Shown: positions 18,077-57,775 of the stretch, one piece after another | Layout of the letters: the number at the start of each line of letters is the position of its first letter | How positions within the stretch are numbered: position 1 is the stretch's first letter | Virus record (IMG/VR): IMGVR_UViG_3300045988_126112 | Location: 179,965-243,964 of that record | Source: a virus | DNA length: 64,000 nt | Reading direction: 5' to 3' (one strand) | Made by a program: the position numbers and the translations under genes | Notes under the pieces: generated by a model | Told to the model about the DNA's origin: nothing | The model's database searches: none | What the model saw: the letters and a program-made list of their open reading frames with translations, nothing else

Positions 18077-20836
18077 ATGAAAATGGATAAAGAAGTAAGA
18101 AGAAGTTTTGAAAGAAAGAATTTAGAAAGAGCTGCTAAAAAAGCTGCAGTAGTTGGATTAACTACATTAGTATTAAGTACAAGTGGTATACAAGCAAATG
18201 CTGCATCAAGATATGACAATTCAAATTATAGAGGTATAGGTTATATATCTAAAGTTGAAGAAGTTAGTGAACTAGGTAATGGTGGATATATATCTACTGG
18301 TGCTGGTGACTACGGCGGAGTTTCATATGGTATATACCAATTCTCTACTACAACTGGTAGTGCAAGAGATTTTATAAATTGGACTAAAAAGAATGACTCA
18401 GAAGTTTATAAATATTTCAAAGCTGAAGGAAATCCAAGACCTTCAACAGCTGCATTTAATAGAGCTTGGAAAAAAGCTTATAAAGAATTAGGTACTAAGT
18501 TTGAGAAATCTCAATATGATTTCGCATCTGAATACTTAATAAAACCAGCATACAACAGAGTAAAGAAAAGATTTGGATTAGATTTGAAAAAATCTAGAGC
18601 TAGAGAAGAATACTTAATAAGTACAGCAGTACAATTTGGACCAGGAGGTATATGTAATCTATTTAAAGAAGTTGAAAATAGAGGTATCAAATTAGATGAT
18701 AATATGGACGATAGTGAATTATTATCTATAATGTGCAATCATAAACGTGATACAGTAGCTTATCATTTTAGAAGTTCTAGTTCTAAAGTTAAAGCTGCTG
18801 CTAGACAAAGATTCATAAGAGAAAAGAAAGAGTTATTAAAAATAGCTAAAGAAGAATCTGGTAAAACTTTAGATGAAGTAAAAGAAACAAGTACTAGTAC
18901 ATCTAAAGCTAGTTCTTCAAAAGAAGAAACTAATGATGTATCAACACAAGAATTTGATGACGTAATAGAAGTTAACGACAAAGATATAGAAAAAGATTAT
19001 GACAAAGTTGAAAAAGAACTTGATGAAGTAAACGATGTTATATCTGATGAAACTCAAGACAATACTGAATCTAAAGAAGAAGATAAATCAACTACAGAAG
19101 ATGAAGATACTTCTAAAGAAGAAACAACTGACGAAGAAACTTCAAAAGACGAATCAGCTAAAGAAGATAAAGCTGAAGAAAAAGATAATACAGAAAAAGA
19201 AGAAACTAAAGATGAAGATAAACAAGAATCAACTGAAAATGATTCATCTTTAGATAATACATTATTTGTTGGTGATTCTCATATGAAAGGTGCAGAATCA
19301 ACAATAAAAAATAATTATGACAATTCTCAAGTAAAAGCAACAGTAGGAGCATCTGCATATGTTTACTTACATGATACTAAATTCTTTGGAGAAAAATTAA
19401 TAAATTCTTTACCAGAAGATAGTGATGATATACATCAAGTAGTAGTATCATTAGGTGTTAATAATATAACTGGAGCTACAAATGAATCTGATGTAATAAA
19501 AGTATTAGAAAAATTACAAGCTAAATATCCAGGAAAACCAATAAGATTTATGTTAGTAAATCATGTTGGTAATAAATATACTGAAGCTAGTGTATCAAAA
19601 ACAAATAAATTAATAGACCAATTAAACAAAACTGTTTCTGATTATGCTAAAGAACATGAAAATGTATCAGTTATAGATGCTAGTGAAGGATTAGAAACTA
19701 ATGGTAAACTTACTAGTACTAATGATGGATTGCATGTAAATAATAATAAAAAACTGCTAAATAATATAGAAAAAGCTGTAGAAGAAAAACAAGATAAAAC
19801 AACTTTAGAAGAAGCACCTGACCAAGTTAAAAATAATGATGAATTCGATTCAATAGTAGACGAAGATACAACTAAAGATATAGAAGAACCAGACAAAGCT
19901 ACAGAAGAAGATAATGATAAACAAGAATCTTCTAAAGAAGATAAAGTTGAAGAAAAAGACAATGATAGTAAAGAAGAAACTTCTAAAGAAGACAAACAAG
20001 AATCAACTGAAAAAGAAACAACTGACGAAGAAACTTCAAAAGACGAATCAGCTAAAGAAGATAAAGAATCTGATACTAAAGAAGAATCTAAAGATGAAGA
20101 TAAATCAACTGAATCAGAAAAAGAATCTTCTAAAGAAGAAACAACTACAGAAGATAATACTGTAGAAGAAGACAATGATAAAGAAACTTCTAAAGATGAA
20201 TCAACTAAAGAAGATAAATCTGAAGAAAAAGACTATGATACTAAAGAAGAAACTCCAGCTAAAGAAAATACAACTGAAAAAGAATCTTCTAAAGAAGAAA
20301 CTAAAGATAATACAGTAAAAGAAGATAAAGAATCTGATACTAAAGAAGAAGCAACTGATAAAGAAACTTCTAAAGATGAATCAACTAAAGAAGATAAATC
20401 TGAAGAAAAAGCTGTAGAAGAAAAACAAGAATCTTCTAAAGAAGAAACTAAAGATAATACAGCTAAAGAAGATAAATCAACTGAATCAGAAAAAGAATCT
20501 TCAAAAGAAGAATCAACTAAAGAAGACAAAGCAGTAAAAGAAACTAAAGAAGAAACTCCAGCTAAAGAAGAAAAACAAGAATCAACTAAACAAGAATCTT
20601 CTAAAGACGAATCAGTTAAAGAAAATAAAGCTGAAGAAAAAGCTGTAGAAGAAAAACAAGAAACTTCTAAAGAAAAAGAACAACCAGTTCAAGAAGAAAA
20701 AACTACAGAAAAACAAGAAACTGCAACTGAAGATAATACTAAACAAGAAGATAATAGTAAAGAAGAATCTTCTGACACATTAAATGAATTACAATCAAGA
20801 TTATCTAATAACTTATTTGGAAAATTAATGAGTTAA
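18077..20836 (+). CDS. secreted multidomain protein: lysozyme-like domain, acidic arm, SGNH/GDSL hydrolase, acidic arm
   Basis: Signal-peptide-like N-terminus (AAVVGLTTLVLSTSGIQANA-AS). YGIYQFSTTTGSARDF...STAVQFGPGG. SGNH blocks LFVGDSHMKG, SLGVNNI, DGLHVNN. Long E/K/D/S/T low-complexity arms. Confidence 0.7.
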   Translation: MKMDKEVRRSFERKNLERAAKKAAVVGLTTLVLSTSGIQANAASRYDNSNYRGIGYISKVEEVSELGNGGYISTGAGDYGGVSYGIYQFSTTTGSARDFINWTKKNDSEVYKYFKAEGNPRPSTAAFNRAWKKAYKELGTKFEKSQYDFASEYLIKPAYNRVKKRFGLDLKKSRAREEYLISTAVQFGPGGICNLFKEVENRGIKLDDNMDDSELLSIMCNHKRDTVAYHFRSSSSKVKAAARQRFIREKKELLKIAKEESGKTLDEVKETSTSTSKASSSKEETNDVSTQEFDDVIEVNDKDIEKDYDKVEKELDEVNDVISDETQDNTESKEEDKSTTEDEDTSKEETTDEETSKDESAKEDKAEEKDNTEKEETKDEDKQESTENDSSLDNTLFVGDSHMKGAESTIKNNYDNSQVKATVGASAYVYLHDTKFFGEKLINSLPEDSDDIHQVVVSLGVNNITGATNESDVIKVLEKLQAKYPGKPIRFMLVNHVGNKYTEASVSKTNKLIDQLNKTVSDYAKEHENVSVIDASEGLETNGKLTSTNDGLHVNNNKKLLNNIEKAVEEKQDKTTLEEAPDQVKNNDEFDSIVDEDTTKDIEEPDKATEEDNDKQESSKEDKVEEKDNDSKEETSKEDKQESTEKETTDEETSKDESAKEDKESDTKEESKDEDKSTESEKESSKEETTTEDNTVEEDNDKETSKDESTKEDKSEEKDYDTKEETPAKENTTEKESSKEETKDNTVKEDKESDTKEEATDKETSKDESTKEDKSEEKAVEEKQESSKEETKDNTAKEDKSTESEKESSKEESTKEDKAVKETKEETPAKEEKQESTKQESSKDESVKENKAEEKAVEEKQETSKEKEQPVQEEKTTEKQETATEDNTKQEDNSKEESSDTLNELQSRLSNNLFGKLMS
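19121..19172 (+). repeat. 52-bp exact direct repeat, copy 1 (upstream of the SGNH domain)
   Basis: GAAACAACTGACGAAGAAACTTCAAAAGACGAATCAGCTAAAGAAGATAAAG is also found at 20015..20066. Confidence 0.85.
20015..20066 (+). repeat. 52-bp exact direct repeat, copy 2 (downstream of the SGNH domain)
   Basis: Identical to 19121..19172. Confidence 0.85.
20177..20411 (+). repeat. 180-bp-period repeat within the acidic arm
   Basis: GATAAAGAAACTTCTAAAGATGAATCAACTAAAGAAGATAAATCTGAAGAAAAAG occurs at 20177..20231 and 20357..20411. Confidence 0.85.
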
Positions 20837-36496: not shown

Positions 36497-36517
36497 TAAA
36501 ACTCACTTATTTTGATT

Positions 36518-37465: not shown

Positions 37466-37486
37466 GATTATATATTATAAATATGA
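37466..37486 (+). promoter_or_regulatory. extended promoter-like box GATTATATATTATAAATATGA (leader copy 2)
   Basis: Identical 21-mer at 36820..36840. Confidence 0.5.
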
Positions 37487-37609
37487 CATAGATATGATAT
37501 ACAATAATTTTTAAAAAGGTAAATCATATCTTTATGATATGATGCTGATGTCTATGTTACTATGTAAGATTTCCCATCTTATATAGTCAGCAAGAAAGGG
37601 GAATATATT
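37487..37609 (+). promoter_or_regulatory. structured 5' leader, copy 2
   Basis: GATATGAT 37491..37498, ATCATATC 37523..37530, GATATGAT 37536..37543. Clamp 37544..37548 and 37587..37591. Hairpin 37560..37586 with loop TTCCC. SD GGGGAA 37598..37603. Confidence 0.55.
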
Positions 37610-39117: not shown

Positions 39118-41220
39118 ATGATTAGAAAAGCTAATGAGCCAGAGCCACTTATAATTAATAAGTATAAGGAAGCTACAATTCCTTTACTTGAAAAATCATT
39201 TCCAAACCTTAATTGGATGGAATTAGAGGAAGGAGTAGATTATTCAGTAAAAAACAGATTAAAAGATTGGGATTGTGTTATAGACAATAACTATCTTATG
39301 CAACAAAAACAAATGACAGGGTTACAATTAACTGATTATATTATCAGTAGAGAACCAATTATAACAGCTTATGGAGTTATGTTTAAGAAACATGCTGAAG
39401 CAATAAATCCATTATCATTAATGATTTCAGGTTTCTTAGATGACAGGGTAAAAGAGAAAAAAGAAATGTTCAAATATCCAAAAGGTTCAGAGGATTTCGA
39501 GAAGCACAACTTAATGCAACAATTATATAAAATTGATGCTAATGGAACTTATGGAGCAATAGGACAGCATACGTGTATATTCTATAATTTATATATTTCA
39601 AGTACAGTAACTACTCAAGCCAGAAGCTTGATATCAGCTGCATCGTTACAATTTGAAATGTTCTTAAATAACAACTGTAAGTTTAATTCATTTAATGAAA
39701 TGGTGACATTTGTTGGAAATATAATGTCTGAAAAACCTAGAAGAAGATTTAAAGACTATAATATATTAGACGGAAATGTTACAAGAAAAGATTGTTTTAT
39801 TAAATTAGTAATGACTTGTGGATTTGATTATATTCCTACATATGAAGAAATGGATATACTTTGGAATATGTTAATGAATATGGATCAAGAAGATATTAAT
39901 AGAGTATATTATAAAAATAATCTTTATGAATTTATGGAAAATTCTTCAATGACAAAAGCAATAGTTACAATATTACAAGATTTAGAATTACCATTCTTAG
40001 ATCCAAATACACCACCAGATTGTATAAAACCACAATTAGAAGTATTGTGCGAATTACTAATGGAATATGTGTATTATGATCATCAAATAATAGATAGATT
40101 AGATAAATATAATCAAATGTATAGATCAGTATCAGTAATAACAGATACCGATTCATCTATTATATCTTTAGATGGATGGTATAATTATATACTTCAAAAA
40201 ATATGTGGAATAGATATGAAAATAAAACATCAAGAAGTAGATGCTATATCTTATTTAGATGTATTAGCTAATGATAAAGATACAGAAGAAATTCCATATG
40301 AAATAGTAGAAGAAGAAGAATATTCATTCTATGATGAAGATATGATTGAAACTAAAAGATGTATAGATACAAATAAAGTAATTCCTCAAGATGGATTAAG
40401 ATATTCTATAATAAATATTATGGCATATTGTTTAGATAAAGTAGCTAATGATTATATGGTAAGATATACTGAAAATTCTCATTCAGCTGCTCCAAATAGA
40501 AAATGTAAAATGATATTGAAAAATGAATTCTTATTTAGAAGAGTATTACTTACTTATAATAAAAAGAATTATGCATCTATACAAGAAATACAAGAAGGAA
40601 ATCAAATACCAGCAGAAGAAGCATTAGATGTAAAAGGACTTCCAATGAATAAATCTACATTAAATAAAGAAACTAGACGTAGATTAAAAGAAATATTATA
40701 TGAAGATATATTAAATACACCAGCTATAGATCAAATAAAAGTATTAAAATCTTTAGCTAAATTAGAAAAAGATATATATACTTCATTATCTTCAGGAAGT
40801 AAAGATTATTATATTCCTTCTAGAATAAAATCAATGTATTCATATAAAGATCCTGAAACAGTTCAAGGTATAAAAGCTGCAATGGCTTATAATGAACTTA
40901 AAGATAGTGATATGGAAGCATTAGATTTGACACAAATAAATTCTATAGATATAGTAAAAGTTTTAATAAATTCAAAGACAATAGAACCACTTAAAGAGAC
41001 TAATCCAGAATTATATGAAAAAATAAGTAATTTATTAAAATCATCAACTTTCAAAGGAGAAATAACTTCTTTAGCTATACCAATAAATGAAAAGACACCA
41101 GAATGGGTACTTGATTTTATAGATTTCAATACCATAGTTTCAAATAATATAGTATTCCCTATAGAATCATTAGGAATATATGAAGGAAAATGTAATTACA
41201 CTAATGTAATAAAATTATAA
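39118..41220 (+). CDS. family B DNA polymerase, C-terminal (fingers/palm/thumb) fragment
   Basis: Motif B LYKIDANGTYGAIG, motif C SVITDTDSSII, KKNYA (KKRY-like). No exonuclease motifs and no DxxSLYPS motif A in the 130 aa before motif B. Confidence 0.85.
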   Translation: MIRKANEPEPLIINKYKEATIPLLEKSFPNLNWMELEEGVDYSVKNRLKDWDCVIDNNYLMQQKQMTGLQLTDYIISREPIITAYGVMFKKHAEAINPLSLMISGFLDDRVKEKKEMFKYPKGSEDFEKHNLMQQLYKIDANGTYGAIGQHTCIFYNLYISSTVTTQARSLISAASLQFEMFLNNNCKFNSFNEMVTFVGNIMSEKPRRRFKDYNILDGNVTRKDCFIKLVMTCGFDYIPTYEEMDILWNMLMNMDQEDINRVYYKNNLYEFMENSSMTKAIVTILQDLELPFLDPNTPPDCIKPQLEVLCELLMEYVYYDHQIIDRLDKYNQMYRSVSVITDTDSSIISLDGWYNYILQKICGIDMKIKHQEVDAISYLDVLANDKDTEEIPYEIVEEEEYSFYDEDMIETKRCIDTNKVIPQDGLRYSIINIMAYCLDKVANDYMVRYTENSHSAAPNRKCKMILKNEFLFRRVLLTYNKKNYASIQEIQEGNQIPAEEALDVKGLPMNKSTLNKETRRRLKEILYEDILNTPAIDQIKVLKSLAKLEKDIYTSLSSGSKDYYIPSRIKSMYSYKDPETVQGIKAAMAYNELKDSDMEALDLTQINSIDIVKVLINSKTIEPLKETNPELYEKISNLLKSSTFKGEITSLAIPINEKTPEWVLDFIDFNTIVSNNIVFPIESLGIYEGKCNYTNVIKL

Positions 41221-42771: not shown

Positions 42772-43164
42772 CTATCCTTTAGCTACATTTTTAAATACAA
42801 TAAGGTTAAATAAACAGTCTGGTGCATCTTCAGATGCGAACCATTCATTACTAGACATCATATTTATTGTAGTACCTGAAGAATTTATAGTATAATCATA
42901 ATCTTCTTCTAAATAAGTACTATTTTTAAATACCATTAATAAATCTTTTGATGCATTAAAATTAAAACTAGTTGGTATTGTTATTGAACTAGTTCCGTAT
43001 TTTAATGATATTGAACTTTTTAGATATTTTACTGGGCTAGCAGTAACAGTACCACCACCTCCACCAGAGCCACCTCCACTAGATGCAACTTCTTCTTTGA
43101 TCAAATTTTTAAGATATTGTATTAATGAGGCACTTAATTCATTTATAGTAATTTTACCTGCCAT
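42772..43164 (-). CDS. small fibre-like protein
   Basis: MAGKITINELSASLIQYL. Gly linker SSGGGSGGGGGT. AAGGGGG RBS before the ATG at 43164. Confidence 0.55.
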   Translation of the reverse strand: MAGKITINELSASLIQYLKNLIKEEVASSGGGSGGGGGTVTASPVKYLKSSISLKYGTSSITIPTSFNFNASKDLLMVFKNSTYLEEDYDYTINSSGTTINMMSSNEWFASEDAPDCLFNLIVFKNVAKG

Positions 43165-43266
43165 TAAAAACACCCCCTTATATAGATATTAATATATTGT
43201 TTGATTAAAATATGGGCTAAATCATAACATATATATAAATTAATTTAAGAAAGGGGGTTAATTGTC

Positions 43267-43884
43267 TTGACTAGCAACTTACAGAAACTTACTAAATCTC
43301 TTCAAATTTATACTGATAATAAATCATTTAATAGTGTTATACTTTCAGTAAATACATATGAAGAATTGACAACAAATGAAACATTACAAGCTTATGTTTC
43401 TGAAGGTATTAAATGCTTTGTAAAATTTGAAAAATGCTATTATAAGTATACTAAAAATGGATGGGAAAAAGATAAACTATATGAATATTCAGATAATCCA
43501 CCAAATGATACTAATATGATATGGTATCCTAAACAACAATCTATAGTTACGACTCCAGAAGAAAAAGTAAATTTTGAAGTTTTATTACGAACAATAGAAA
43601 ATCTTGAAAGTAAAATAGATTTACTTGAAGCTAGAGTTAAATATTTAGAAGAACATGGATCTTCAGGAGGAGGAAGTAGTGGAGGAGATACTCCAAGTGA
43701 GGATATTATAAATACAGCTATAATGATAGATACAAACACTCCTTTATTAATAGATGAGAATACTATATTATTATTTAATAAAAGTAGCTCTTCTAAACCT
43801 GAAGAAAGTATTGAAAATGCTTTGATGATTGATAAAACAAATGCATTAAAAATTAATGACAATGAAATATTTTTAATTAAATAA
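43267..43884 (+). CDS. fibre-like protein
   Basis: TTG start with GGGGG RBS. N-terminus NLQKLTKSLQIYTDNK is shared with 14437. Coiled coil then the HGSSGGGSSGG linker. Confidence 0.55.
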   Translation: MTSNLQKLTKSLQIYTDNKSFNSVILSVNTYEELTTNETLQAYVSEGIKCFVKFEKCYYKYTKNGWEKDKLYEYSDNPPNDTNMIWYPKQQSIVTTPEEKVNFEVLLRTIENLESKIDLLEARVKYLEEHGSSGGGSSGGDTPSEDIINTAIMIDTNTPLLIDENTILLFNKSSSSKPEESIENALMIDKTNALKINDNEIFLIK

Positions 43885-43899: not shown

Positions 43900-46275
43900 A
43901 TGGCAACAATAACAGGAAAAACTATTGAAGAATTAAATTCTTCAAATTTTTTAAGTTCAGTAACAGGAAATGAAATAGTACCAGTATATGTAAGAGGTAC
44001 TGGAACTACAACTTTTCAATTAAAAGCACTTAAAGATTATTTGGGAGCTAATGATGATAAAACATATATCCCAATTACAGATGATAAAGGAGTAAACTAT
44101 AGAATCTATTTAAAAAATGGAGATTTAGTAAAGATAAAAGAAGATGCGTTTACTGGACGTACCCCATCTTCTGGAGAAAATAATTTATATGATGGTTTAA
44201 TAATCAATTCTATGTATGGTGCTGGTACTGAAGCTGGTGTAATAACTCCAGTTTCTCATAGTTTTATAGAATTATATAACTTCCAAGAACAAGAAATAAA
44301 TCTTAAAGGATTATATCTTTGGTATAGAGCTAAATCAGGAAACTGGCAATCTTTAGAATTACAAGGAATAATTCCAGCAAGACATTCATTTCTTATAAGA
44401 TGTGCTCAACAAATGGATCCTTATAGTGATTCAGTAACTGTTCCAATATTAGACTATGATATGGAATGGGATATTAAATTATCTAATCAAGGATTTTCTG
44501 TTTATCTTTGTATAGGTAGTGAAACACCAGAAGATAATCCATTAAGAAAAACATTAGACTCTTTAGGTCAAGTTTCTTCAACTAATGGTAGATATATAGA
44601 TTTATTAGGTGCTGGTGGAAAGAAAGAAGAGGAAACTGTATGGGCTTATGAAACTAGATATTTACATTGTATGGATAAAAATACTGGTATTCATAGAATA
44701 GACTATGCTAATAGTGGTACTAAAAATATAGGTTCAAATGCTTTAGTTAAACAAAATAATGAAGCTGACTGCGAACCAATAGATTACACTAATTGTGATA
44801 CAACTAAATATAGACCTAGAAGTTTAAAAGATGGTAGATGGACTGAGTTCTATGATAAAGTTACTCAATCTCAAACATCACCAGCATTAATAAATATATC
44901 TTTTGGTCAAGAAGATACTAGTAGATGTTTCTGCTTTAGAACACCAGTTGCTAGAGAAGGATTTGTTTATTATAGAAAAGTAGGAGAAAATTTATGGAAT
45001 AGTGAGCTTACTAGTATGAGTATTGTAAAAGATATGGAAGGTGTAAGTACTGTTCATAAAGCAAAAATAAGTAATTTAGAAGTTGGGATATATGAATATA
45101 AAGTAGGATATGAAGGTTGCTGTTCAGATATAGCAACATTTGAAGTTAAAAATTATAATAATCAAGAGCAAACAATTAATATGCTATGGACTTCAGACCA
45201 ACAAAGCTGGACTGAAAGAGAATATGATGTATGGAAAATAGCTGCTCAACATTTAAGACAAAATAATGGTTATAAGAAATATGATTTCCATTTAAATACA
45301 GGAGATATATCTCAAAATGGTAATAGATGTTGGGAATGGAGATTATATTATAATTATTCTGGAGAATTAGTAAGAAATATTCCTCATATGATAACTGCTG
45401 GTAATAATGACTTAGTATCTAAAAAATTTAGTGATGCTTATGAGCATTATATTTATGAAGATAAAAAATTTGCTAATTCAGTATATTATTTTGATTTAGG
45501 ATTTACTCATTTTATTTGTTTAAATAGTAATACAGATTTTACTTATGTAAATGGTAAAGGTACAGAAGGTGGATATGCAAGTACTGATGCATTCCTTCAA
45601 GCACAAATGGATTGGTTTGATCAACATATGACAGAAGTTAATCAAAGAGAAACTAAGCCTAGATGGGTAATAGTTTATGCTCATTTATCTCCATTTACAG
45701 TTGGTAGAACTATAAGACTTCAAAGATGGGTAGCTCATTTTGAAAAATGGAAAATAGATTTAGTTCTATGTGGTCATAACCATGCATATTCTAGAAGTAA
45801 AGCATTAAAAACTGGATATGATTTTGATAAATCACCAGCTTATAATGATTATGTAACTAAAGTTAGTGGTAGTTCAGAATTAAAAATAGTAGATGAATTC
45901 CAAGCTGATGGTGTTACTGAAATAGATAGAAATGAACACAAAGCTGATGGTGTTGTTTATATATTAAACCATGCTTGTGGATTTAAACTTTCAGGTAAAG
46001 AAAAACCAATAACTCTACCTACATCATTACAAGGCACTAAACATGCAAATGCTGATGGAGCTCCATGGTGGATAGTTAAACAAAAATTACCAACTAATCC
46101 ATGCTATGCTACATTAAGTATAGGATATGATAAAATAGAATACAAATTCTATGAAATAACTGGTATTATAAAATATGACCAATATAAAAATACAATAGTA
46201 AGCGATGATTTATCAAAAATATCAGATAGCTTATTTGATCAACTTACTATAAATTATTCTGAAAGAAATAAATAG
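43900..46275 (+). CDS. lamin-tail-domain plus purple-acid-phosphatase-like metallophosphoesterase
   Basis: LTD signature SHSFIELYNFQEQEINLKGLYLWY. Metallophosphatase motifs GDISQNGN, GNND, VYAH, GHNHAYSR. Confidence 0.75.
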   Translation: MATITGKTIEELNSSNFLSSVTGNEIVPVYVRGTGTTTFQLKALKDYLGANDDKTYIPITDDKGVNYRIYLKNGDLVKIKEDAFTGRTPSSGENNLYDGLIINSMYGAGTEAGVITPVSHSFIELYNFQEQEINLKGLYLWYRAKSGNWQSLELQGIIPARHSFLIRCAQQMDPYSDSVTVPILDYDMEWDIKLSNQGFSVYLCIGSETPEDNPLRKTLDSLGQVSSTNGRYIDLLGAGGKKEEETVWAYETRYLHCMDKNTGIHRIDYANSGTKNIGSNALVKQNNEADCEPIDYTNCDTTKYRPRSLKDGRWTEFYDKVTQSQTSPALINISFGQEDTSRCFCFRTPVAREGFVYYRKVGENLWNSELTSMSIVKDMEGVSTVHKAKISNLEVGIYEYKVGYEGCCSDIATFEVKNYNNQEQTINMLWTSDQQSWTEREYDVWKIAAQHLRQNNGYKKYDFHLNTGDISQNGNRCWEWRLYYNYSGELVRNIPHMITAGNNDLVSKKFSDAYEHYIYEDKKFANSVYYFDLGFTHFICLNSNTDFTYVNGKGTEGGYASTDAFLQAQMDWFDQHMTEVNQRETKPRWVIVYAHLSPFTVGRTIRLQRWVAHFEKWKIDLVLCGHNHAYSRSKALKTGYDFDKSPAYNDYVTKVSGSSELKIVDEFQADGVTEIDRNEHKADGVVYILNHACGFKLSGKEKPITLPTSLQGTKHANADGAPWWIVKQKLPTNPCYATLSIGYDKIEYKFYEITGIIKYDQYKNTIVSDDLSKISDSLFDQLTINYSERNK

Positions 46276-46287: not shown

Positions 46288-49200
46288 ATGCCAAGATTAT
46301 ATATTGATGGAGAATGGAGAGAAGTTGTTAACTCCTCTAATTTTCCAATAATAAATCTTAGTAAATCATATAAGAGTCAATATCTTGAAGGTGCATTAGA
46401 AGAAATAGCTACTTGGAATAATAAAAGTTTAGAAAAGATAGCAACTATAAATACTACTTTAACTAAACACAAAAGTGATATTGATTATCTTAAAGAACAT
46501 GGTGGTGGAGGTTCAGGAGGTGGTGGAGGTGGAACAACACTTCCAACTATAACAACTACAACTGAATCTCCAATAGTTATAGATCCAGATGCCAATTTAG
46601 AAGTTTCAGTATTCTTTTCTTCTCCTAATTTAGGAGAAGGATTGGCATATATTTTATTTGACGATGCTGAAGTAGATACAATTAAAATAAAACAAGGTAA
46701 TAATGTTTTAAATTTAGGTAAGATGACTAATTTACAAACTAAAGTATCTGTATATGTAAGAGATAGAAGTCAATTAATGTCTAATATGATTTCTTGGACT
46801 GTAATAAGTGGTGGTATAGATTTAACATTAAATTTTGATTATGAAGCTGATTACATGATTGGTGATGAAATATTTATGGATTATGAAATATCTTCAGCTA
46901 CATCTAATCCAGTTAAATTAAAAATAAATATAGATGGAGATAATTATGAACAAGAATGTCAACAAGGATTCAACAGTTATGATTTATCTGAATTATCTGT
47001 TGGTGTCCATGTCATTAAGATATTTGCAACAGACGGAACATACACTTCTAAAACATATGAATTCAATGTTGTTGTAATTAACTCTGATTCATTATATTTA
47101 TCTACTACTTTTAAAGGTGGAAAATTTGATTATGGTGTACCAATAATGGTAAACTATCGTATATCTGATGGTAGTTTAAGAAAATTTGAAGTTAAATTAT
47201 ATTTAGATAATAAGATATATAAAACATTATCATCTTCAAGAGGTTCTTATTATTGGACTATAACAGATATGAATATTGGAAATCACACATTCAAAATAGA
47301 AGTAAATGCTGATGATGATCATAAAGTTGTAGAAGGTTCTTTTACTGTAGTAGAAGGAGATTATACTCCATTAAGTATAAATAAACAAGGATTGGTATTT
47401 AGATTAGACCCAACAACTAAAACTAATCAAGATGAAGATAGAGCTAATCCTACATTTAATGGTGTTGGATTGGAATTACATGGATTCAACTTCTCATCTA
47501 ATGGATGGGTTGATGGAGAGTTAGTATGTGATGGTGGTGCTTACGGTATAATTGATTATAGCCCATGGGCTGATAATGCTACTAGAGGTTCAACAATAGA
47601 AGTTTATTATAAATGCACAGACATAGGAATGGATCAAGCTAAAGTATTAGACTATTCTGATACTAAGAGTCAAAAAGGATTTAGTGTAGGATTAGACCAA
47701 TGTTCAATGCGTTCTATAGCTAATACTGGTATAGGATTTGTTAATCCAGATAAGTATATAAAAGTATCATTTGTTATAGATAGAAATAATAAATTTGCTC
47801 ATGTATATATAAATGGTGTTTGCTCAAGAAGTTTTCAATTAAATGATTCAGGTTCTGGTGTTGGAGCTATATATGAAGACTTTTCACATGATGGAAAAAT
47901 TTATATAAACTGTGATAGTTTAATGGCAAATATAGGTAGTTGTAGAATAAAGGATATATTAGTATATAGACGTGCTTTAAGTAAAGATGAAATATTAAAG
48001 AATACTTTAGCTTATGAACTTGATATGTCTGTACAAAAAATAAATTATAATTTTGAATTTAATAATAGTACATTATCAAAGATGAAAATGTATGGTAGTA
48101 CAGAAGGTATGAGTTTATATCAAGCTAATACAATGAGATTAAAATATGAATCAGCTAATACAGAAAAATATGGTCAGTCATTTGATTTACCTTATTGTCT
48201 AGTACAATGGCAAGGTACTTCATCAATAGCTTATTCTATAAAGAATTATCAAGCTACATTACGTGATACTGATATGAAAGAATATTTATATACTCCATAT
48301 CCAAATGGAATACCTGAAAGTATATTCTGTTTTAAAGCAGACTATATGGAAAGTTCACATGGTAGAAATAGTGGTATAGCTAAATTCTTAAATGATTGTG
48401 TATTTACAATTAAGAATCCAGCTCAATTAAAAGATGGTAGAGTTAGAAATGCTATAAATGGATTCCCAATGTTAATGTATATTAATGATGAATTAATTGG
48501 TATTTATAACTTTAATACAGATAGATATTCAGCTAAGACATATGGATATACTGATGAAGAAAAAACTTTAGTATATGAAATAGCTGCAAACTCTGACAGT
48601 ACTGCTGGTGCTTTCTTTAAATATACTGGTACTGGTGACCCAACTGCATATTATAAAGCTGACTTTATGTGCTTATATCCACCAACAAGAGCTGCAGGTA
48701 ATGATAACTTTACTGAGATAAAAAGCTTAGTTGAATGGGTTCATGATGCAAGTGATGAAGAATTTAAAGAAAACTTTGAAAAGCATTTTAATAAGAAATA
48801 TGTACTAAGATATTTAATATATGTAAATCTTATGGGTGCTGTCGATTCACTAGGTAAGAATATGAAATTAGCTTCTTGGGATGGAGGAAATATCTGGTAT
48901 ATTCAACCTTATGACTGTGATACAACTATTGGATTAGATAATAGTGGTGACTTAAGATTTAGTTCAGATATAGAAATAGGTGAAGCTGATACATTCAATA
49001 CTACAGCATCTAAACTATGGGAAAAAGTTATGAGAGTATTTGAAGAAGATATTAAAGCTGAATATGCTGAATTAAGAAGAACTACTTTAACTCTAGAAAA
49101 TATGTATAAATACATATTAGATGAGCAAATAAATAAAATTCCTAAATATTATTATAATAGAGATATGGAAAATAAATATCTTAAATATCCTACATGGATA

Positions 49201-52200
49201 TATGCTTTACATGGTGATGCAGGTTCTTTCATAGAACAATGGCTAAAAGATAGATTATTATACGTTGATACAATGTATGATTATAATGCTAGTACAGCTG
49301 ACTTTGTAACTCTTAGAGCTAGTAAATTTGGTAATGTATATGTAGATATACAAACATTTTGTTCAATGTATTTTACAATTAAATGGACAAATAAAGCTGG
49401 AGATACTCAAAAATTAAGAGTTAAAAAAGGTGAAACTGTAAGATTTAAAGCATATATGTCTACAGCAACTGACCAAGAAGTAATAGTTTATGGTGGTAAA
49501 TATATTAAATCTTTAGGAGATTTAAGTAATATGCAACCAGCAACATTATCTTTAGGTAATGCAACAAGGCTAACTAAATTAGTTTGTCATTCAGAAAAAT
49601 TATATAATACAGATATATCTAAATGTAGTAATTTAACTGAATTAGACTTATCAGATTGTACTCAATTAGGTAGTGGAGCATCAGCTCAACCTATATTAAA
49701 TGTAAGTAATTGTGCAAATATACAATCAGTAAATTGTAAGAATACACAAATAACTGAAGTACAATTAAATCCTAAAGGAAGTAATATAAAAGAATTAATA
49801 TTATCTAAAACTATTCAAACTATAACTTTAAACAACTGTCCAAATTTAAATGTTGTTGAATTAGAAGATGGTCATAATGTTAAAAATGTAGAAATTACTG
49901 ATTGTCCTGAATTAAAATTTGGAAATACTACTTCTGCTAATTTATCTGGAATTGTTAAATTAAGTTTAAATAATTCTTGTAATAATTTAAGAGAAATAGT
50001 AGTACAAGATACTTCAAATTTAAGTGAAATGAATATCTACAATAATGATTCAATAGAAAAAATTAGATTGGGTGTACAAGTATTTGATGATAATGTACCT
50101 TATACTCATGATAAAGCTCAAAGTGGAGAGAATATAACTATTAAAACTATAAGAGCAACAGCTTTAAAAGAATTAATAATTACTGGATATGGTAGACAAT
50201 CTAGTAGTGATTTTGAATTACCTACAAGACCTGCAAATAGTCCTGTAAATAGAAATAAGTATGATACATTTATATGTAACAATTTAGATTTATCTCAATC
50301 TACAATAGAATCTGTAAGTTTCTTAGCAGCATCATTAATTTATAATTTAAAAGCACCTATTACTTTGAAAAATCTTAGATGCAATAGTTATTATGATAAC
50401 GAAAGAACTGCATGGAATGGACTTGAAGGAACTAATCCTACATGTATATTTAACTTATATAATCCTGATAGTATTACTGTAGATTCTGAACAAAATATTT
50501 GGGATTTAACTGCATTAAATATAAATGATTTTGATATATATAATATTTGTACTGAAGATAATTGTTTAATTACAATGAAAAATATAAGTGCTAAATGTGT
50601 TAATTATCCTTTATCATTTAATTGTCATACAACAACAGTTTCTCCACAAGGAGTAGTTGATTATAGTGAATATAAAGGAACTACTTTAGAATATGCATTT
50701 TCAAATAGTAGTAGCGATAGTTTACAAATTATATTACCAGAATCATTTGAAACTGTAGAAAACTTTACAAAAGCATTCTATAATTGTAGACAAAATTGGA
50801 GTTGGAATAATGTAGCTACTATAATAAGTAATGCTCCAAAGATAAAAAAAATAGGAGACTTTACTTTTGCAAAAGCTAATTTAACTAATTCAGAAACTGT
50901 ATCATTTAAATCAACTAATAGAATTAATATTGGACAAAATTTATTTGAAGAAAGTAATTTAAATAATATTACAGAATTTAATTTCCCTAATGGGATACAA
51001 GTATATGATGATGCTTATGACTATGGAATATTTAATAGAAGTAATCTTGTTACTATTGGAGATATAACTTTAAATACTGGTAGATTAAAATATTTATTTA
51101 TGAGATCTCAAAATTTATTCTCAATAGGAAATATTAATATAGCTAATAATCCAGATACTTCAGCAGAATTAATGTGTGGATATTGCTCTAAATTACAAAA
51201 GATTGGAACAGTAAGAACTTCTAATATTGAAGTATTTAATAATGCTTTTAGGGAATGTACACAATTACAAAAATTAGAATTGGATGTTAGTAAAGCTGTA
51301 ACTATGGATTACATGTGTTATGGTGATTCAGCATTATCTACTATAATATTAAATAATCTAGATAAAAATACTACATTATCTACAATGAATTATAGTTTCT
51401 TTAGATGTGTAGCAGTTCAAGCTATAACAGGTGGAGATTTACTTCCTTCTAGTATAACTAGTACAAGATCTGCATACATGAACTGTAATTCATTGAAAAA
51501 AGCACCAATGCTTCCAGCAACATTAACTGGATATTTAGTATCAAACTATATGTGTTATAGTACAGCAATAAGTAGAGCTGGTAATCTTCCAGAAAGATTA
51601 ACTTCAGGCTCTTATATGTTTAGAAACACAGCTATTGAAGATGAAACAATAGTTTTACCATCAACAATAACTTCTGCATCATATATGTTTAGTAGTGCTG
51701 CAGCTAAGACATTAAATATAAATATACCAGCTGGTTGTAATGATATACAGGGAATATTAGACTCAGCAACTTGTGAAATTATTAATTTAAATATGGAAGA
51801 TCCATCTAATGTAAGATCTATAGTACAATTCATTGGTTCTAATAACCCTAATTTAATTGAATTAAACAATTTAAATCTATATAATTCTAAAGGATTAGAT
51901 TACATTTATTGTCCAAATTTGAACGTTATAACATTTACTAATAATAGTGAAATTATAGATTCATTAAATGTGGCAAATACTAAATTAAACTTAACAACTA
52001 TAGAAAAAATAATTAATATCTTATGGGATGCAACTGGATGGGAAGAATACGAAGATGTAACTCAAGAAGATGGAACAGTTATAAAAGTTAAGAAAGTAAA
52101 AACACTATTATTAGGCTCTGCTAATATGAACACCTTAAAGAATTCTCCAAGAGGAAGTGAAATCTTAGCAATAGGAGTTAATAAAAATTGGACTATATCA

Positions 52201-52206
52201 GCATAA
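46288..52206 (+). CDS. giant host-interaction protein: Gly linker, Ig-like repeats, LamG-like, CotH-like, LRR and BspA-type LRR regions
   Basis: DYLKEHGGGGSGGGGGG. LamG-type ending ILVYRRALSKDEI. CotH-type YLIYVNLMGAVDSLGKNMKLASWDGGNIWYIQPYDCDTTIG. LRR runs (CSNLTELDLSDCTQL, NCPNLNVVELE). Confidence 0.7.
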   Translation: MPRLYIDGEWREVVNSSNFPIINLSKSYKSQYLEGALEEIATWNNKSLEKIATINTTLTKHKSDIDYLKEHGGGGSGGGGGGTTLPTITTTTESPIVIDPDANLEVSVFFSSPNLGEGLAYILFDDAEVDTIKIKQGNNVLNLGKMTNLQTKVSVYVRDRSQLMSNMISWTVISGGIDLTLNFDYEADYMIGDEIFMDYEISSATSNPVKLKINIDGDNYEQECQQGFNSYDLSELSVGVHVIKIFATDGTYTSKTYEFNVVVINSDSLYLSTTFKGGKFDYGVPIMVNYRISDGSLRKFEVKLYLDNKIYKTLSSSRGSYYWTITDMNIGNHTFKIEVNADDDHKVVEGSFTVVEGDYTPLSINKQGLVFRLDPTTKTNQDEDRANPTFNGVGLELHGFNFSSNGWVDGELVCDGGAYGIIDYSPWADNATRGSTIEVYYKCTDIGMDQAKVLDYSDTKSQKGFSVGLDQCSMRSIANTGIGFVNPDKYIKVSFVIDRNNKFAHVYINGVCSRSFQLNDSGSGVGAIYEDFSHDGKIYINCDSLMANIGSCRIKDILVYRRALSKDEILKNTLAYELDMSVQKINYNFEFNNSTLSKMKMYGSTEGMSLYQANTMRLKYESANTEKYGQSFDLPYCLVQWQGTSSIAYSIKNYQATLRDTDMKEYLYTPYPNGIPESIFCFKADYMESSHGRNSGIAKFLNDCVFTIKNPAQLKDGRVRNAINGFPMLMYINDELIGIYNFNTDRYSAKTYGYTDEEKTLVYEIAANSDSTAGAFFKYTGTGDPTAYYKADFMCLYPPTRAAGNDNFTEIKSLVEWVHDASDEEFKENFEKHFNKKYVLRYLIYVNLMGAVDSLGKNMKLASWDGGNIWYIQPYDCDTTIGLDNSGDLRFSSDIEIGEADTFNTTASKLWEKVMRVFEEDIKAEYAELRRTTLTLENMYKYILDEQINKIPKYYYNRDMENKYLKYPTWIYALHGDAGSFIEQWLKDRLLYVDTMYDYNASTADFVTLRASKFGNVYVDIQTFCSMYFTIKWTNKAGDTQKLRVKKGETVRFKAYMSTATDQEVIVYGGKYIKSLGDLSNMQPATLSLGNATRLTKLVCHSEKLYNTDISKCSNLTELDLSDCTQLGSGASAQPILNVSNCANIQSVNCKNTQITEVQLNPKGSNIKELILSKTIQTITLNNCPNLNVVELEDGHNVKNVEITDCPELKFGNTTSANLSGIVKLSLNNSCNNLREIVVQDTSNLSEMNIYNNDSIEKIRLGVQVFDDNVPYTHDKAQSGENITIKTIRATALKELIITGYGRQSSSDFELPTRPANSPVNRNKYDTFICNNLDLSQSTIESVSFLAASLIYNLKAPITLKNLRCNSYYDNERTAWNGLEGTNPTCIFNLYNPDSITVDSEQNIWDLTALNINDFDIYNICTEDNCLITMKNISAKCVNYPLSFNCHTTTVSPQGVVDYSEYKGTTLEYAFSNSSSDSLQIILPESFETVENFTKAFYNCRQNWSWNNVATIISNAPKIKKIGDFTFAKANLTNSETVSFKSTNRINIGQNLFEESNLNNITEFNFPNGIQVYDDAYDYGIFNRSNLVTIGDITLNTGRLKYLFMRSQNLFSIGNINIANNPDTSAELMCGYCSKLQKIGTVRTSNIEVFNNAFRECTQLQKLELDVSKAVTMDYMCYGDSALSTIILNNLDKNTTLSTMNYSFFRCVAVQAITGGDLLPSSITSTRSAYMNCNSLKKAPMLPATLTGYLVSNYMCYSTAISRAGNLPERLTSGSYMFRNTAIEDETIVLPSTITSASYMFSSAAAKTLNINIPAGCNDIQGILDSATCEIINLNMEDPSNVRSIVQFIGSNNPNLIELNNLNLYNSKGLDYIYCPNLNVITFTNNSEIIDSLNVANTKLNLTTIEKIINILWDATGWEEYEDVTQEDGTVIKVKKVKTLLLGSANMNTLKNSPRGSEILAIGVNKNWTISA

Positions 52207-52223
52207 GAAAGGAGGAAACATTA

Positions 52224-52523
52224 ATGTATATTAAAATGGAAAATGGATTAAGAGTTTTATATCCAGACAATGAAAAAAATGTATTAAGATCTAGACTTAC
52301 TAATGATAAATTTCATTACGTGTTTCTTTCTAGGGATGATTCTGAGGAGAATTATACAGAAGAAACTTTAGAATGTGATACAGGAATGGAAAGTGTATTA
52401 GTAATAGTAGAAAATGCTAGAAATAAAAAATTAAATGATTTAAATGCAAGATATGAATTGTTAAAAACTAAAATAAAAAATGCTAAAACTACAGAAGAAA
52501 TAACTTCAATAAATATATTTTAA
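52224..52523 (+). CDS. hypothetical small protein
   Basis: AAGGAGG 9 nt before the ATG at 52224. The track start at 52188 overlaps the previous gene. Confidence 0.5.
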   Translation: MYIKMENGLRVLYPDNEKNVLRSRLTNDKFHYVFLSRDDSEENYTEETLECDTGMESVLVIVENARNKKLNDLNARYELLKTKIKNAKTTEEITSINIF

Positions 52524-52680
52524 TAAAGAGACCACTATGGATAACATAGTGGTCTATCTTTTTATTTTTAACTATAAATTAATAAATTTGAAAGGAGGTA
52601 ATAGGTAATGCATAAAAAAGATGTATTAAAGATATTAAAAAATCTTCCAGACAATACTAAAGAATATATTGATAATTTAA
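52524..52680 (+). repeat. junction cassette A1 (terminator, spacer, RBS, anchor-peptide codons)
   Basis: Aligns over about 160 bp with 57617..57775, with scattered substitutions. Confidence 0.8.
52529..52570 (+). terminator. intrinsic terminator (part of junction cassette A1)
   Basis: AGACCACTATG gataa CATAGTGGTCT, then ATCTTTTTATTTTT. Confidence 0.85.
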
Positions 52681-52988: not shown

Positions 52989-52999
52989 GGGTGATAATT

Positions 53000-55789
53000 A
53001 TGGCTAATAAAAAATTTAATTCTATTAGAGTAAATGATGAAACTATTGATGTACAAGATGCTAATGCAACAACAGAAATAGATAGTTTAAAAGAAAAAAA
53101 CACGACAATTAATAGTCAACTAAACACTATTGAGAACGAACTTGGTAGGAATGAAGATGGCTCAAAAATAACATTACAAACTACTGCACAAAATATAAGA
53201 GGAGCTATAAATGAAGTTAATACACAATTTAAAGATATTGCAGACTTATTTACTACTGAACAAACTGAAACTCTCTTTAAGATAAAGTGTAATGGAAAAG
53301 TTATTGCGAATATTCCAATAAGTGGTGGTAATACTCAAGTTACATCTTATACAATAACAAATACTCTTACTAATTGTAGTAGTAATAATAGAGCAACATC
53401 AATAACTGAAAATAGTTCTTATAATGCTACTATAACTGCAAGAGGAGGATATGTACTAAGTACAGCGACTATAACAATGGGTGGTATTGATATAACTTCT
53501 AGTGCTTACAATAATGGAGTAATTAATATTAGACAAGTTACTGGTAATGTTGTTATAACTGTTAATGCTATAGAAAGTCTAGATACTTATACAATAACAA
53601 ATAATCTTACTAATTGCAGTACTAATAATACAACAACAGCAATAACTGAAAATAGTTCTTATAATGCTACTATAACTGCAAATAATAGATATACATTAAG
53701 TACAGCGACTATAACAATGGGTGGTGTTGATATAACTTCTAGTGCTTATAATAATGGATTAATTAATATTAGACAAGTTACTGGTAATGTTGTTATAACT
53801 GTTAATGCTATAGAAACAACTACTCCAGTTGAACCTCCAGTTGATCCAGATTTAGATGGTTTATTGAAAAATAGACTTTTAGTTTGGCATGATGAATTTG
53901 AAGGTGATAGTTTAGACTTAACTAAATGGAGATATGCAACACATAATAGTGGTGGTTCTGAACAACAAGCATATACAGTCGGAAGAAGCGAAAATGTGAG
54001 ATTAGAAAATGGAAAATTAATATTAGAGGCACATAAAGATGGCTACAAAGGATGGACTTGGAGTAGTGGTAGAATAGATACTTGTCAATTAGCTGGATTT
54101 AAATATGGTAGATTAGAAGCAAAATTAAGATATGATGTTGTATCTGGAGCTTTCCCTGCATTCTGGACAATAGGAACTTGTGCTTATTATCCAACTGGTG
54201 AAGATGTAGTAGGTGTTAAAAAGAGCTTAGGAACTCAATGGGCTCAAAATGGTGAATTAGATATGTTCGAAGGAAGAGGAACTAATAAAACTATAGCCCA
54301 AGGTGGTTGGTATAACCAAGATGATGGTAAAGGAAATCAACAGTTGATATTTGGAGAGGGTAAAAATATAGATGCAAGTGAATATCATGTATATGCCTTT
54401 GAATGGACTCCAACATCTATAACATCTTATATAGATGGTGTGGCAACTGGTACAAAAGATATAACTAATATAAAATCATGGCAAAGACCTATGTATTTAA
54501 TACTTAATATGGCTGTTGGTTCAGTTGGTGGTACTCCTGCTGCAGATTGTACATCTATGAAAATGGAAGTTGATTGGGTAAGAGTATATGCTCCTGTTAA
54601 TGTTACAGAAAAAGTAAATGTAAGTTCTATTACATTAACACAAAATAATGTGACATTAAATGTAGGTGATGAACCTATTGATGTATACTATACAGTTAAT
54701 CCTTCTACAGCATGGGATAATAATGTAGTTATGAGTTCAAATAATACAGATGTAGCAACTGTATATGGTTCAAGAATAACTCCAGTCGGAGTAGGTAATT
54801 GTATAGTAACAGCAAGAGCAACAAATGGAGTTACTGCATCAATAAATGTAACAGTAGCAACAAATGCAAGTATAAATTCTACAAGTATTACATTAGATAA
54901 AAATACATTAGAAATATATAAAGGTACAAGTAATACACTTATTGCTACAGCTTTACCTCCTAATCATACAGATTCAATTTTATGGAAAACATCTGCTCCA
55001 TCTGTAGCAACTGTAGACAACGGAGTTGTTAAAGGTATAAATACTGGTAATTGTACAATAACTGCATATTCAAGTGCAAATGGATCAGTAAAAGCTGAAT
55101 GTGCAATAACTATAAAAGAAGTTAAACAGTTATCAGGACATCCAACAAATGGATTAACATTACAACTAGATAGAAATGGAATGAGTTCTACAGCATGGAA
55201 AAATAAGATAGATGGCATATCTTTACCATGGAAAATAGCACATAATGGAAAAACTGATATATCTGCATATATGGTATATGATGGTGAAAGTTATTATTGG
55301 AATGGAGCTAATTATTTAGATCATTTAACTCTTACTGATTTTGATAAATACTATAATTTTGGAGAAAGCCAAACAATTATATTAGCAGGAGATTTTACAA
55401 ATGCGACAAATACAATATTATCTAATAAAAACTCTTTAAGCCAAAAATCAAATTTAGTTACTATTAATCGTTCAAATCTATCATATGCAGGTTCTAATGA
55501 AGCAAAATTAGGTTCAATAAGTACACCATTTAATATAGATGGTTGTATAGCATTGAGATATGATAAAACAACTCATAGAGTTGATGTAGATACAATGGCA
55601 TTTAGTGCAGATAAAATAACAAATAATAATATGGTATTAGCAAGTGCATTCTCTCAAGATACTAACCCTGCTTTATTAGGTGATAGAACTACATGTAAAG
55701 TATATTATAAATTAGTATTAGTTTATAATAGAGTATTAACAAATGAAGAAATACAAACTGCTATGACAGCAATAAAATCATTTTTTTAA
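53000..55789 (+). CDS. tail fibre with GH16 glycoside hydrolase, Big_2-like Ig domains and C-terminal LamG-like domain
   Basis: LVWHDEFEGDSLDLTKWRY and the catalytic NGELDMFE (ExDxxE). Big_2-like VATVDNGVVKGINTGNCTITA. C-terminal VYNRVLTNEEI. ATG at 53000 after AGGGGTG. Confidence 0.85.
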   Translation: MANKKFNSIRVNDETIDVQDANATTEIDSLKEKNTTINSQLNTIENELGRNEDGSKITLQTTAQNIRGAINEVNTQFKDIADLFTTEQTETLFKIKCNGKVIANIPISGGNTQVTSYTITNTLTNCSSNNRATSITENSSYNATITARGGYVLSTATITMGGIDITSSAYNNGVINIRQVTGNVVITVNAIESLDTYTITNNLTNCSTNNTTTAITENSSYNATITANNRYTLSTATITMGGVDITSSAYNNGLINIRQVTGNVVITVNAIETTTPVEPPVDPDLDGLLKNRLLVWHDEFEGDSLDLTKWRYATHNSGGSEQQAYTVGRSENVRLENGKLILEAHKDGYKGWTWSSGRIDTCQLAGFKYGRLEAKLRYDVVSGAFPAFWTIGTCAYYPTGEDVVGVKKSLGTQWAQNGELDMFEGRGTNKTIAQGGWYNQDDGKGNQQLIFGEGKNIDASEYHVYAFEWTPTSITSYIDGVATGTKDITNIKSWQRPMYLILNMAVGSVGGTPAADCTSMKMEVDWVRVYAPVNVTEKVNVSSITLTQNNVTLNVGDEPIDVYYTVNPSTAWDNNVVMSSNNTDVATVYGSRITPVGVGNCIVTARATNGVTASINVTVATNASINSTSITLDKNTLEIYKGTSNTLIATALPPNHTDSILWKTSAPSVATVDNGVVKGINTGNCTITAYSSANGSVKAECAITIKEVKQLSGHPTNGLTLQLDRNGMSSTAWKNKIDGISLPWKIAHNGKTDISAYMVYDGESYYWNGANYLDHLTLTDFDKYYNFGESQTIILAGDFTNATNTILSNKNSLSQKSNLVTINRSNLSYAGSNEAKLGSISTPFNIDGCIALRYDKTTHRVDVDTMAFSADKITNNNMVLASAFSQDTNPALLGDRTTCKVYYKLVLVYNRVLTNEEIQTAMTAIKSFF
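53345..53816 (+). repeat. 240-bp tandem duplication (2 units) encoding an 80-aa domain
   Basis: YTITNTLTNCSSNN...VITVNAIE versus YTITNNLTNCSTNN...VITVNAIE, with long identical DNA stretches. Confidence 0.9.
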
Positions 55790-57616: not shown

Positions 57617-57775
57617 AAAGAGACCACTATGGGTAACATAGTGGTCTTTGTTTTTTATTTTGAACTATAGATTAATGAATTTGAAAAGGAGGTAAGGTAA
57701 AATGCGTAATAAAGACGTATTAAGAAAATTAAAGAATCTTCCAGATAATACTAAGGAATATATTGATAATAATGA
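57617..57775 (+). repeat. junction cassette A2
   Basis: See 52524..52680. Confidence 0.8.
57621..57660 (+). terminator. intrinsic terminator (part of junction cassette A2)
   Basis: AGACCACTATG ggtaa CATAGTGGTCT, then TTGTTTTTTATTTT. Confidence 0.85.

Follow-up and report, generated by a model that had tools for sequence, protein, structure and literature searches.

We analyzed a 64,000-nucleotide stretch of DNA from a virus (positions 179,965 to 243,964 of the IMG/VR record IMGVR_UViG_3300045988_126112; hereafter, the window), and in particular one giant gene within it. The open reading frame (ORF) at 46288..52206 (+) starts with ATG and encodes a product of 1972 amino acids, which is the position and size given in an initial annotation of the window that was made from the letters of the DNA. 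By sequence and by fold, this protein is a member of the CotH family, and it has every feature of the family that can be tested in silico. We lean, with modest confidence, towards the view that it is a tail-fiber or host-recognition protein of a jumbo myovirus, that its CotH kinase is active, and that it takes part in phosphorylation at a surface together with a phosphoesterase.

The CotH domain was recognized both by its sequence profile and by its predicted structure. Pfam's model of CotH (PF08757) matches residues 641-971 with 73.7 bits, compared to a gathering cut-off of 23.8 bits (E = 2.5e-20; positions 3-300 of the 322 in the profile). An AlphaFold2 (AF2) model of residues 590-1075, computed from an alignment of 44 family members, has a mean predicted local distance difference test score (pLDDT) of 91.9 and a predicted template-modeling (TM) score of 0.91. 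When we compared this model to the Protein Data Bank (PDB) with Foldseek, the first matches were to the CotH kinase from B. cereus (5JDA/5JD9; E = 6e-17, target-normalized TM score of 0.76). The runners-up were other atypical kinases (PI3K, HipA, and CtkA), with E > 3e-3, or 14 orders of magnitude behind. The profile and structure comparisons therefore uphold the CotH assignment in the initial annotation, and all of the peptide motifs that it quoted are present in the protein (HGGGGSGGGGGG at residues 71-82, LVYRRALSKDEI, FKADYMESSHGRN, and GAVDSLGKNMKL...PYDCDTTIG). The CotH domain of the phage protein is just 15-16% identical, approximately, to 5JD9. Using phmmer with the whole protein or the CotH region against PDB sequences, we obtained spurious hits only (a match of the Gly linker to an engineered fiber, and CdiA-CT), and hmmsearch with our family profile (A2) gave nothing from the PDB at E ≤ 1.

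To place the active site, we recovered the deposited sequence of 5JD9 by using a sequence of B. subtilis CotH as bait, and we aligned it to a profile of 13 family members with hhalign (E = 2e-4 to 4e-4). We take D853 in the catalytic loop to be D228 of B. subtilis CotH and D876 in the metal-binding motif to be D251; this numbering comes via the bait sequence, which is offset by about one residue. The catalytic aspartate and the metal-binding aspartate are 23 residues apart, which is the same spacing as between D228 and D251. In B. subtilis, the D228Q and D251A mutants of CotH are inactive (PMC7821199).

We then counted residues in an alignment of all 239 homologs that we collected, including representatives of clusters at 50% identity. 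D853 is conserved in 231/231 sequences, D876 and D878 are each conserved in 232/232, K857 in 230/230, and N858 in 227/230. K683 (221/221), Q642 (218/218), and G643 (218/218) are invariant as well. Elsewhere, the aligned homologs diverge to about 24% identity. Invariance of the active site despite this divergence is the pattern expected from selection on catalysis, which argues against a structural relic. The initial annotation had raised the question of the catalytic residues, and D853, N858, and D876 both align with CotH and are conserved across ~230 relatives. The CotH domain is probably an enzyme rather than a mere scaffold, and its residues point to a working nucleotide-dependent phosphotransferase.

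What kind of virus encodes this protein? The window has ~27% G+C. Its genes include those for a tail sheath and a tube-like virion protein, as well as split genes of the RNA-polymerase beta type and a gene for a divergent family-B DNA polymerase. The sheath shares 24-29% identity with its counterparts in phiR1-37, PBS1, and the Staphylococcus S6 group. These genes, together with the likeness of the sheath, indicate that the window is part of an uncultured jumbo myovirus. Its gene content resembles that of the PBS1 / AR9 / phiR1-37 group of jumbo phages.

The CotH gene lies within a ~20-kb cluster of fiber-like and enzyme genes with GH16, Big_2, LamG, and tail-fiber PHROG signatures. On another contig (L001; 239.6 kb), which encodes a 43%-identical copy, 2 kb separate the cassette of CotH and phosphoesterase genes from the genes for the tail sheath and tube. 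A more distant setting is provided by a siphovirus-type prophage of Zongyangia hominis NSJ-54 (NZ_JACRTC010000002.1; locus L100, 132-15037), which carries a CotH homolog of 1734 amino acids. The gene order in this prophage is major tail protein, tape measure protein (TMP), Dit, a Tal-like protein, the CotH protein, a small ORF, an endolysin, and two serine integrases. The slot after Tal and before the lysin is the classical slot for the receptor-binding protein (RBP) of siphophages of Gram-positive bacteria.

The relatives of the 1972-residue protein point in the same direction. A word-indexed search found 101 relatives of 1440-3218 amino acids, all of them metagenomic and none informatively named. 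They align with our protein from residue 1 to about residue 1200, at 35-66% identity, and their C-termini then differ in length and in Pfam content. Phage RBPs are typified by an N-terminal module that stays constant and a C-terminal tip that can be exchanged. Given its position in a fiber cluster, its constant and variable parts, and the RBP slot of the prophage homolog, we infer that this is a tail-fiber-type protein and that it is present in the virion. The initial annotation had read it as a virion-type protein, and both synteny and modular architecture support that reading.

To examine the distribution more broadly, we used the CotH region in an exhaustive search, which gave 2982 clusters (at 50% identity) with E ≤ 1e-3. 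The best 150 of the 2982 clusters are mostly giants (about 1100-3100 amino acids), and the remainder look like fragments; in these 150, the CotH domain is typically 600-1300 residues from the N-terminus. Scans with a profile of the family found at least 532 contigs in IMG/VR, as well as 99 loci in genome assemblies. These loci are mostly from gut Clostridia (Oscillospiraceae, Lachnospiraceae, and Acutalibacteraceae) and include isolate genomes. The window's relatives derive from gut metagenomes, and megablast of the CotH gene against GenBank phages gave no match.

The gene just upstream of the CotH gene encodes a metallophosphoesterase of 791 amino acids. Pfam shows a weak lamin-tail domain (LTD), the N-terminal domain of purple acid phosphatase, and a calcineurin-like phosphoesterase domain, and the protein keeps the D, GD, and GH.H motifs. 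Using tblastn of this protein against 162 loci, we found the phosphoesterase directly upstream of the CotH gene, on the same strand, in 28/80 related viral contigs (from IMG/VR, with phage G included). An upstream phosphoesterase is also found in L001 and in locus L083 from the genome collection; in L002, it is at 4562-7162. All of the loci with an upstream phosphoesterase are from closer, jumbo-type relatives. Six loci (L001, L029, L031, L032, L034, and L081) also have a homolog of the window's 205-residue ORF (Table 1) upstream of the phosphoesterase.

Bacillus phage G is a cultivable megaphage with this arrangement. Its gp352 (described as "metallophosphoesterase") is 34% identical to the 791-residue protein over 742 amino acids. 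Its gp353 is 28% identical to the CotH giant over 1388 amino acids, which include the N-terminus, the Gly linker, LamG, CotH, and the first leucine-rich repeats (LRRs), and it is the giant's best structural match in BFVD (E = 3e-42). Residues 1-71 are kept in gp353 and in all close relatives. A Gly-rich linker (GTIGGGGNGG) occupies the matching position of gp353, in which the start of the first LRR block is still conserved. We found no discussion of gp352 or gp353 in the readable literature on phage G, and literature searches on gp353 and on the crAss "spore coat protein" found nothing.

We propose that the anchor, the beta-sandwich repeats, LamG, CotH, and the small beta-sandwich after it would form a constant module that makes up the N-terminal two-thirds of the protein, with the C-terminal LRR solenoid as an exchangeable tip that would bind the host. 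The LRR tip and the lectin-like modules would hold the fiber on the cell envelope. The CotH kinase and the phosphoesterase encoded upstream would work as a cassette and, as the phage adsorbs, would alter how a surface-exposed substrate is phosphorylated. LamG, the beta-sandwich that resembles a carbohydrate-binding module (CBM), and the BspA-type LRRs suggest that the action takes place at a surface. For the CotH giant, we infer the catalytic activity, the substrate, the presence in the virion, and the place of the reaction. We also considered a more general idea: in jumbo phages, phage G included, a fiber-borne pair of kinase and phosphoesterase might rewrite, at adsorption, the phosphorylation of proteins in the host's envelope or of polymers in its wall. 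We consider this unlikely. If true, it would imply a new class of receptor-modifying virion enzymes, and it would give a protein-kinase fold its first role on a virus particle's exterior. Should the pair act on either the host's surface or the virion's proteins, phage adsorption or maturation would gain a new type of chemistry.

Several observations weigh against our proposal. Its main weakness is that there is no obvious supply of ATP for a kinase on the outside of a virion. For the mapping of active-site residues, hhalign gives a probability of 36-47%, a low value that reflects the use of a single sequence as the template; support for the mapping thus comes from the identity of the motifs, their spacing, and the Foldseek match, not from superposition. 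The alignment of the N-lobe (G643 and K652) is low-confidence. CotH relatives with ~25% identity are found in 30-55-kb phages and prophages without the phosphoesterase, so the kinase-phosphoesterase pair is not obligatory. Finally, the 791-residue phosphoesterase reads GNND instead of the canonical GNH[DE]; phage G's gp352 carries the same substitution.

The strongest rival explanation, which we rate as somewhat unlikely, is that the CotH domain acts inside the infected cell and phosphorylates virion or fiber proteins during assembly, with the phosphoesterase trimming or reversing these marks. ATP is present in the cell, and the only CotH enzymes that have been characterized act on the structural proteins of a self-assembling shell: CotH from Bacillus polyphosphorylates CotB and CotG and thereby patterns the spore coat (PMC7821199). 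Conceivable substrates are encoded in the window, as it has Ser/Thr-rich linkers and a K/E/D/S/T-rich repeat protein of 919 amino acids, although the idea that the 919-residue protein (18077..20836) is a substrate of the kinase is pure speculation. On the other hand, both the modules that flank CotH (lectin-like and LRR) and the siphoprophage's RBP slot point outward, to the host's surface. Those same adhesion-type modules, which surround the CotH domain, could instead fit a large adhesin fiber in which CotH is a binding or scaffold module without catalysis. The CotH invasins of Mucorales bind GRP78 of the host and so act as receptor ligands (PMC9973265), and no extracellular source of ATP is obvious. 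Without catalysis, it is hard to explain why D853, K857, D876, and D878 are invariant and why N858 is nearly so, and the conserved phosphoesterase next door suggests phosphate chemistry. We consider a purely binding role to be quite unlikely.

We also considered a kinase that is not part of the virion, such as a secreted effector or a host-takeover protein comparable to the protein kinases of T7 or 933W. Some kinases encoded by phages are known to have targets inside the cell (PMC8008677), and the genomes of jumbo phages are mosaic, with structural and non-structural genes interleaved. This explanation seems very improbable to us: a protein of 1972 residues with a conserved N-terminus and a variable C-terminus has the layout of an RBP, its neighbors are fiber genes, and the homolog in the prophage occupies the TMP-Dit-Tal-X-lysin slot. 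We continue to favor an outward-acting kinase on a tail fiber.

The domains of the CotH giant and the two genes upstream are listed in Table 1. The N-terminal region (residues 1-71) is presumed to be the part that attaches to the virion. The initial annotation stated that the N-terminus and the Gly linker are shared with neighboring fiber proteins, which is partly correct. A short motif, YL[KE]EHG at the end of the coiled coil and then the Gly/Ser linker, is shared with the ORF at 43267..43884 (pairwise E = 0.04), and the linker alone is shared with the ORF at 42772..43173 (-). The motif is not in the large downstream fiber genes, whose common N-terminus is different. Beyond the short motif, we found no significant homology between the N-terminus of the CotH giant and neighboring ORFs.

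Table 1. Features of the CotH giant and of the genes upstream of it. Coordinates are those of the window, and residues are numbered within the CotH giant.
Feature	Residues	Coordinates (strand)	Basis or remark
205-aa ORF		43267..43884 (+)	Upstream of the gene pair; coiled-coil end and linker motif YLEEHG-SSGGGSSGG
791-aa metallophosphoesterase		43900..46275 (+)	Ends 12 nt before the CotH gene
N-terminal region, ends ...DIDYLKEH	1-71	46288..46500 (+)	Helical or coiled-coil by eye from the sequence
Gly/Ser linker GGGGSGGGGGG	72-82 (11 residues)	46501..46533 (+)	
Beta-rich segment R1	85-176	46540..46815 (+)	Weak profile similarity to R2 and R3, E 0.0035-0.01
R2 and R3, ~90-aa repeats	177-264 and 265-357	46816..47358 (+)	Homologous, hhalign 96.9%, E 1.4e-10
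LamG / ConA-like jelly-roll, ends LVYRRALSKDEI	~395-590	47470..48057 (+)	Laminin_G_3 similarity
CotH-family atypical kinase domain	597-1005	48076..49302 (+)	Pfam, AF2, Foldseek, hhalign
Catalytic loop V-D853-S-L-G-K857-N858	D853-N858	48844..48861 (+)	Aligned to B. cereus F-D-G-F-V-H-N
Metal-binding motif Y-D876-C-D878-T-T, DFG-like	D876-D878	48913..48921 (+)	Aligned to B. cereus W-D-Y-D-A-T
Small beta-sandwich after the kinase	1006-1068	49303..49491 (+)	Six strands in the AF2 model (model residues 417-479)
First LRR block, ~22-aa repeats L..L.L..C..L	~1069-1300	49492..50187 (+)	Short regular strands, AF2
Second LRR block, BspA / DUF285-like YMF..C..L repeats	~1500-1900	50785..51987 (+)	pLDDT >90 in this region
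C-terminal alpha/beta cap ending ...KNWTISA, and stop codon		51988..52206 (+)	Helices at model residues 863-926

After the linker, the initial annotation had described three Ig-like repeats. The mutual homology of R2 and R3 is clear from hhalign (97%), R1 is similar to them weakly, and the Ig fold is a presumption: R2 and R3 are presumed from their sequences to be Ig-like beta-sandwiches. Self-BLAST did not reveal any internal repeats in the protein, and the homology of R2 and R3 emerged by profile comparison. The jelly roll that was described as LamG-type falls below Pfam's cut-off in the query itself (Laminin_G_3, residues 432-569, 14.2 bits instead of 27.6 bits, E = 0.051). It is supported through an ortholog (P0067), in which the corresponding region (residues 414-569) passes the cut-off with 30.4 bits; P0025 and P0032 score 24-25 bits. 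In Foldseek, the small beta-sandwich after the kinase has weak local matches (E about 0.1) to sugar-binding domains, CBM4 among them, and it is possibly CBM-like.

For the C-terminal part, the initial annotation had proposed two kinds of LRRs, and this is confirmed by the modeled solenoid, by Foldseek, by the two flavors of repeat in the sequence, and by the relatives. The AF2 model of residues 1040-1972 is a solenoid with a pLDDT of 87.6, and all of its significant Foldseek matches are LRR proteins, including BspA-type 4H09, 4FS7, and 4GT6. These three are BspA-type surface proteins of gut bacteria. The global TM scores of the solenoid against LRR proteins in the PDB are low because the curvature differs. 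No LRR family in Pfam matches the query at E ≤ 1; its relatives have strong matches to DUF285 (up to 434 bits) and LRR_5, which they carry in the region of the second LRR block, a part that differs from one relative to another. A C-terminal end of the KGWTI type is conserved in the family consensus. We rejected two matches of the query as noise: NCBIfam's "flagellin" (18.5 bits, with a cut-off of 210) and Pfam's "Enhancer of rudimentary".

The neighboring fiber-like genes have features of their own. An N-terminus (M..KDVLK.LKNLPDNTKEYIDN) and its ribosome-binding site are common to three genes (shared stretches at 52584-52676, 57678-57770, and 63253-63345). These encode a 126-residue ORF (52608), a fiber protein of 1025 residues (57702), and a protein that runs off the end of the window (63278). 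From its sequence, this N-terminus appears to be an attachment module that several fibers have in common. Between the first two of these genes, at 52991-55789, is a fiber-like protein of 932 residues with a coiled N-terminus, GH16 and Big_2 domains, and a LamG-like C-terminal end (LVLVYNRVLTNEEI); it is probably a glycanase-armed fiber. This gene contains a tandem duplication of 240 nucleotides (53346-53816; 92% identity). The gene for the 1025-residue tail fiber (57702-60779) has many matches to tail-fiber PHROGs and includes five 42-nucleotide (14-residue) repeats of the SHAEG type, at 59441-59682. The last fiber-like gene, which is cut by the window's end, contains a tandem repeat of 204 nucleotides (63544-63951; 81% identity).

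Farther from the CotH gene, RNA-polymerase beta-type, family-B DNA polymerase, and DHH phosphoesterase genes (at 3332-4840, 34371-36455, 39118-41220, and 13033-14214 (-)) are interleaved with structural genes. The 919-residue protein at 18077-20836 (phrog_34863 and phrog_26249) has a low-complexity, K/E/D/S/T-rich repeat in its C-terminal two-thirds, with many S/T-K-E motifs. An AT-rich repeated element (TGTAAAACT...ATTATATATTATAAATATGACATA) is found upstream of genes at 14351-14396, 22580-22651, 36493-36538, 36799-36870, and 37445-37516, and may serve the phage's own multisubunit RNA polymerase as a phage-specific promoter. A segment of 94 nucleotides is duplicated with 93% identity, 647 nucleotides apart (36864-36957 and 37511-37604). 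The duplicated segments precede small paralogous genes at 36917-37384, 37610-37984, and 38056-38466.

It is useful to compare the CotH giant to systems that are better known. It shares with CotH from Bacillus (B. subtilis, and B. cereus 5JD9/5JDA) the atypical kinase fold, the D....N of the catalytic loop, the D.D motif, and their 23-residue spacing, and each is either embedded in a proteinaceous shell or acts on one. The Bacillus proteins are stand-alone enzymes of the mother cell with ~360 residues, while here the domain is central in a phage protein of 1972 residues with LamG and LRRs, and its activity is predicted. Also, the catalytic loop has GKN in the phage protein and VHN in Bacillus CotH.

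Another comparison is to the target proteins of diversity-generating retroelements (DGRs) in gut phages and prophages (Roux PC_00012; "domain group 3" of Macadangdang; and Bacteroides phages of the Hankyphage type), which also exceed 2000 residues and have a CotH kinase-like domain at their center. At their end is a variable region of the C-type-lectin kind, which the retroelement diversifies, while the tip of our protein varies by swapping of modules between relatives. We rejected the idea that the CotH giant is itself a DGR variable protein, as we found no template/variable repeat pair for its gene. No repeat family touches the CotH gene, relaxed blastn of 50000-52300 against the window gave only short, AT-rich chance matches, and there was no reverse transcriptase among the window's ORFs that were scanned (not every ORF was scanned).

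In its layout, the CotH giant is similar to enzyme-armed tail fibers and tailspikes, such as depolymerase RBPs: these have a conserved anchor at the N-terminus, an enzymatic domain in the center, and modules that bind the host, and are encoded in a cluster of tail-fiber genes. The neighbors of the CotH gene carry GH16 and phosphoesterase domains, which fits with this comparison. The known fiber enzymes are hydrolases, lyases, and esterases that need no supply of a cofactor, and we know of no demonstrated working example of a kinase-fold domain on a tail fiber. A further comparison is to phage G, whose gp352-gp353 are orthologous over their full length to the pair described here, in the same order and orientation. 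The LRR C-terminus of gp353 is unlike that of our phage, and phage G's host is Bacillus/Lysinibacillus, while the window's relatives come from the gut.

The class of giant phage proteins that contain a CotH kinase domain is already on record, with no member experimentally characterized. Three PHROG families cover the 1972-residue protein, and phage entries in BFVD and GenBank include "CotH kinase protein", "Spore coat protein H kinase fold", "Spore coat protein-like protein", and "Internalin-like protein". Roux 2020 modeled a viral CotH DGR target of 2284 residues (bioRxiv 10.1101/2020.04.01.020958), Macadangdang 2024 described proteins of >2000 residues that combine CotH, carbohydrate-binding motifs, and LRRs (bioRxiv 10.1101/2024.11.15.621889), and Benler 2021 stated that CotH kinase domains in phages "are currently unstudied" (PMC8008677). 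So, of the novelty that the initial annotation suggested, what stands is that no CotH protein of a phage has been characterized by experiment; the class itself appears in PHROGs, BFVD, GenBank, and the DGR literature. In the searchable literature, we did not find the phosphoesterase-CotH cassette, its presence in phage G, or a quantification of active-site invariance. CotH-type domains are present in thousands of giant phage proteins, many of them from gut phages of Clostridia and Bacteroides. The conservation of the active site, the RBP slot, and the phosphoesterase cassette in a cultivable phage (gp352/gp353 of phage G) make the question of their function testable.

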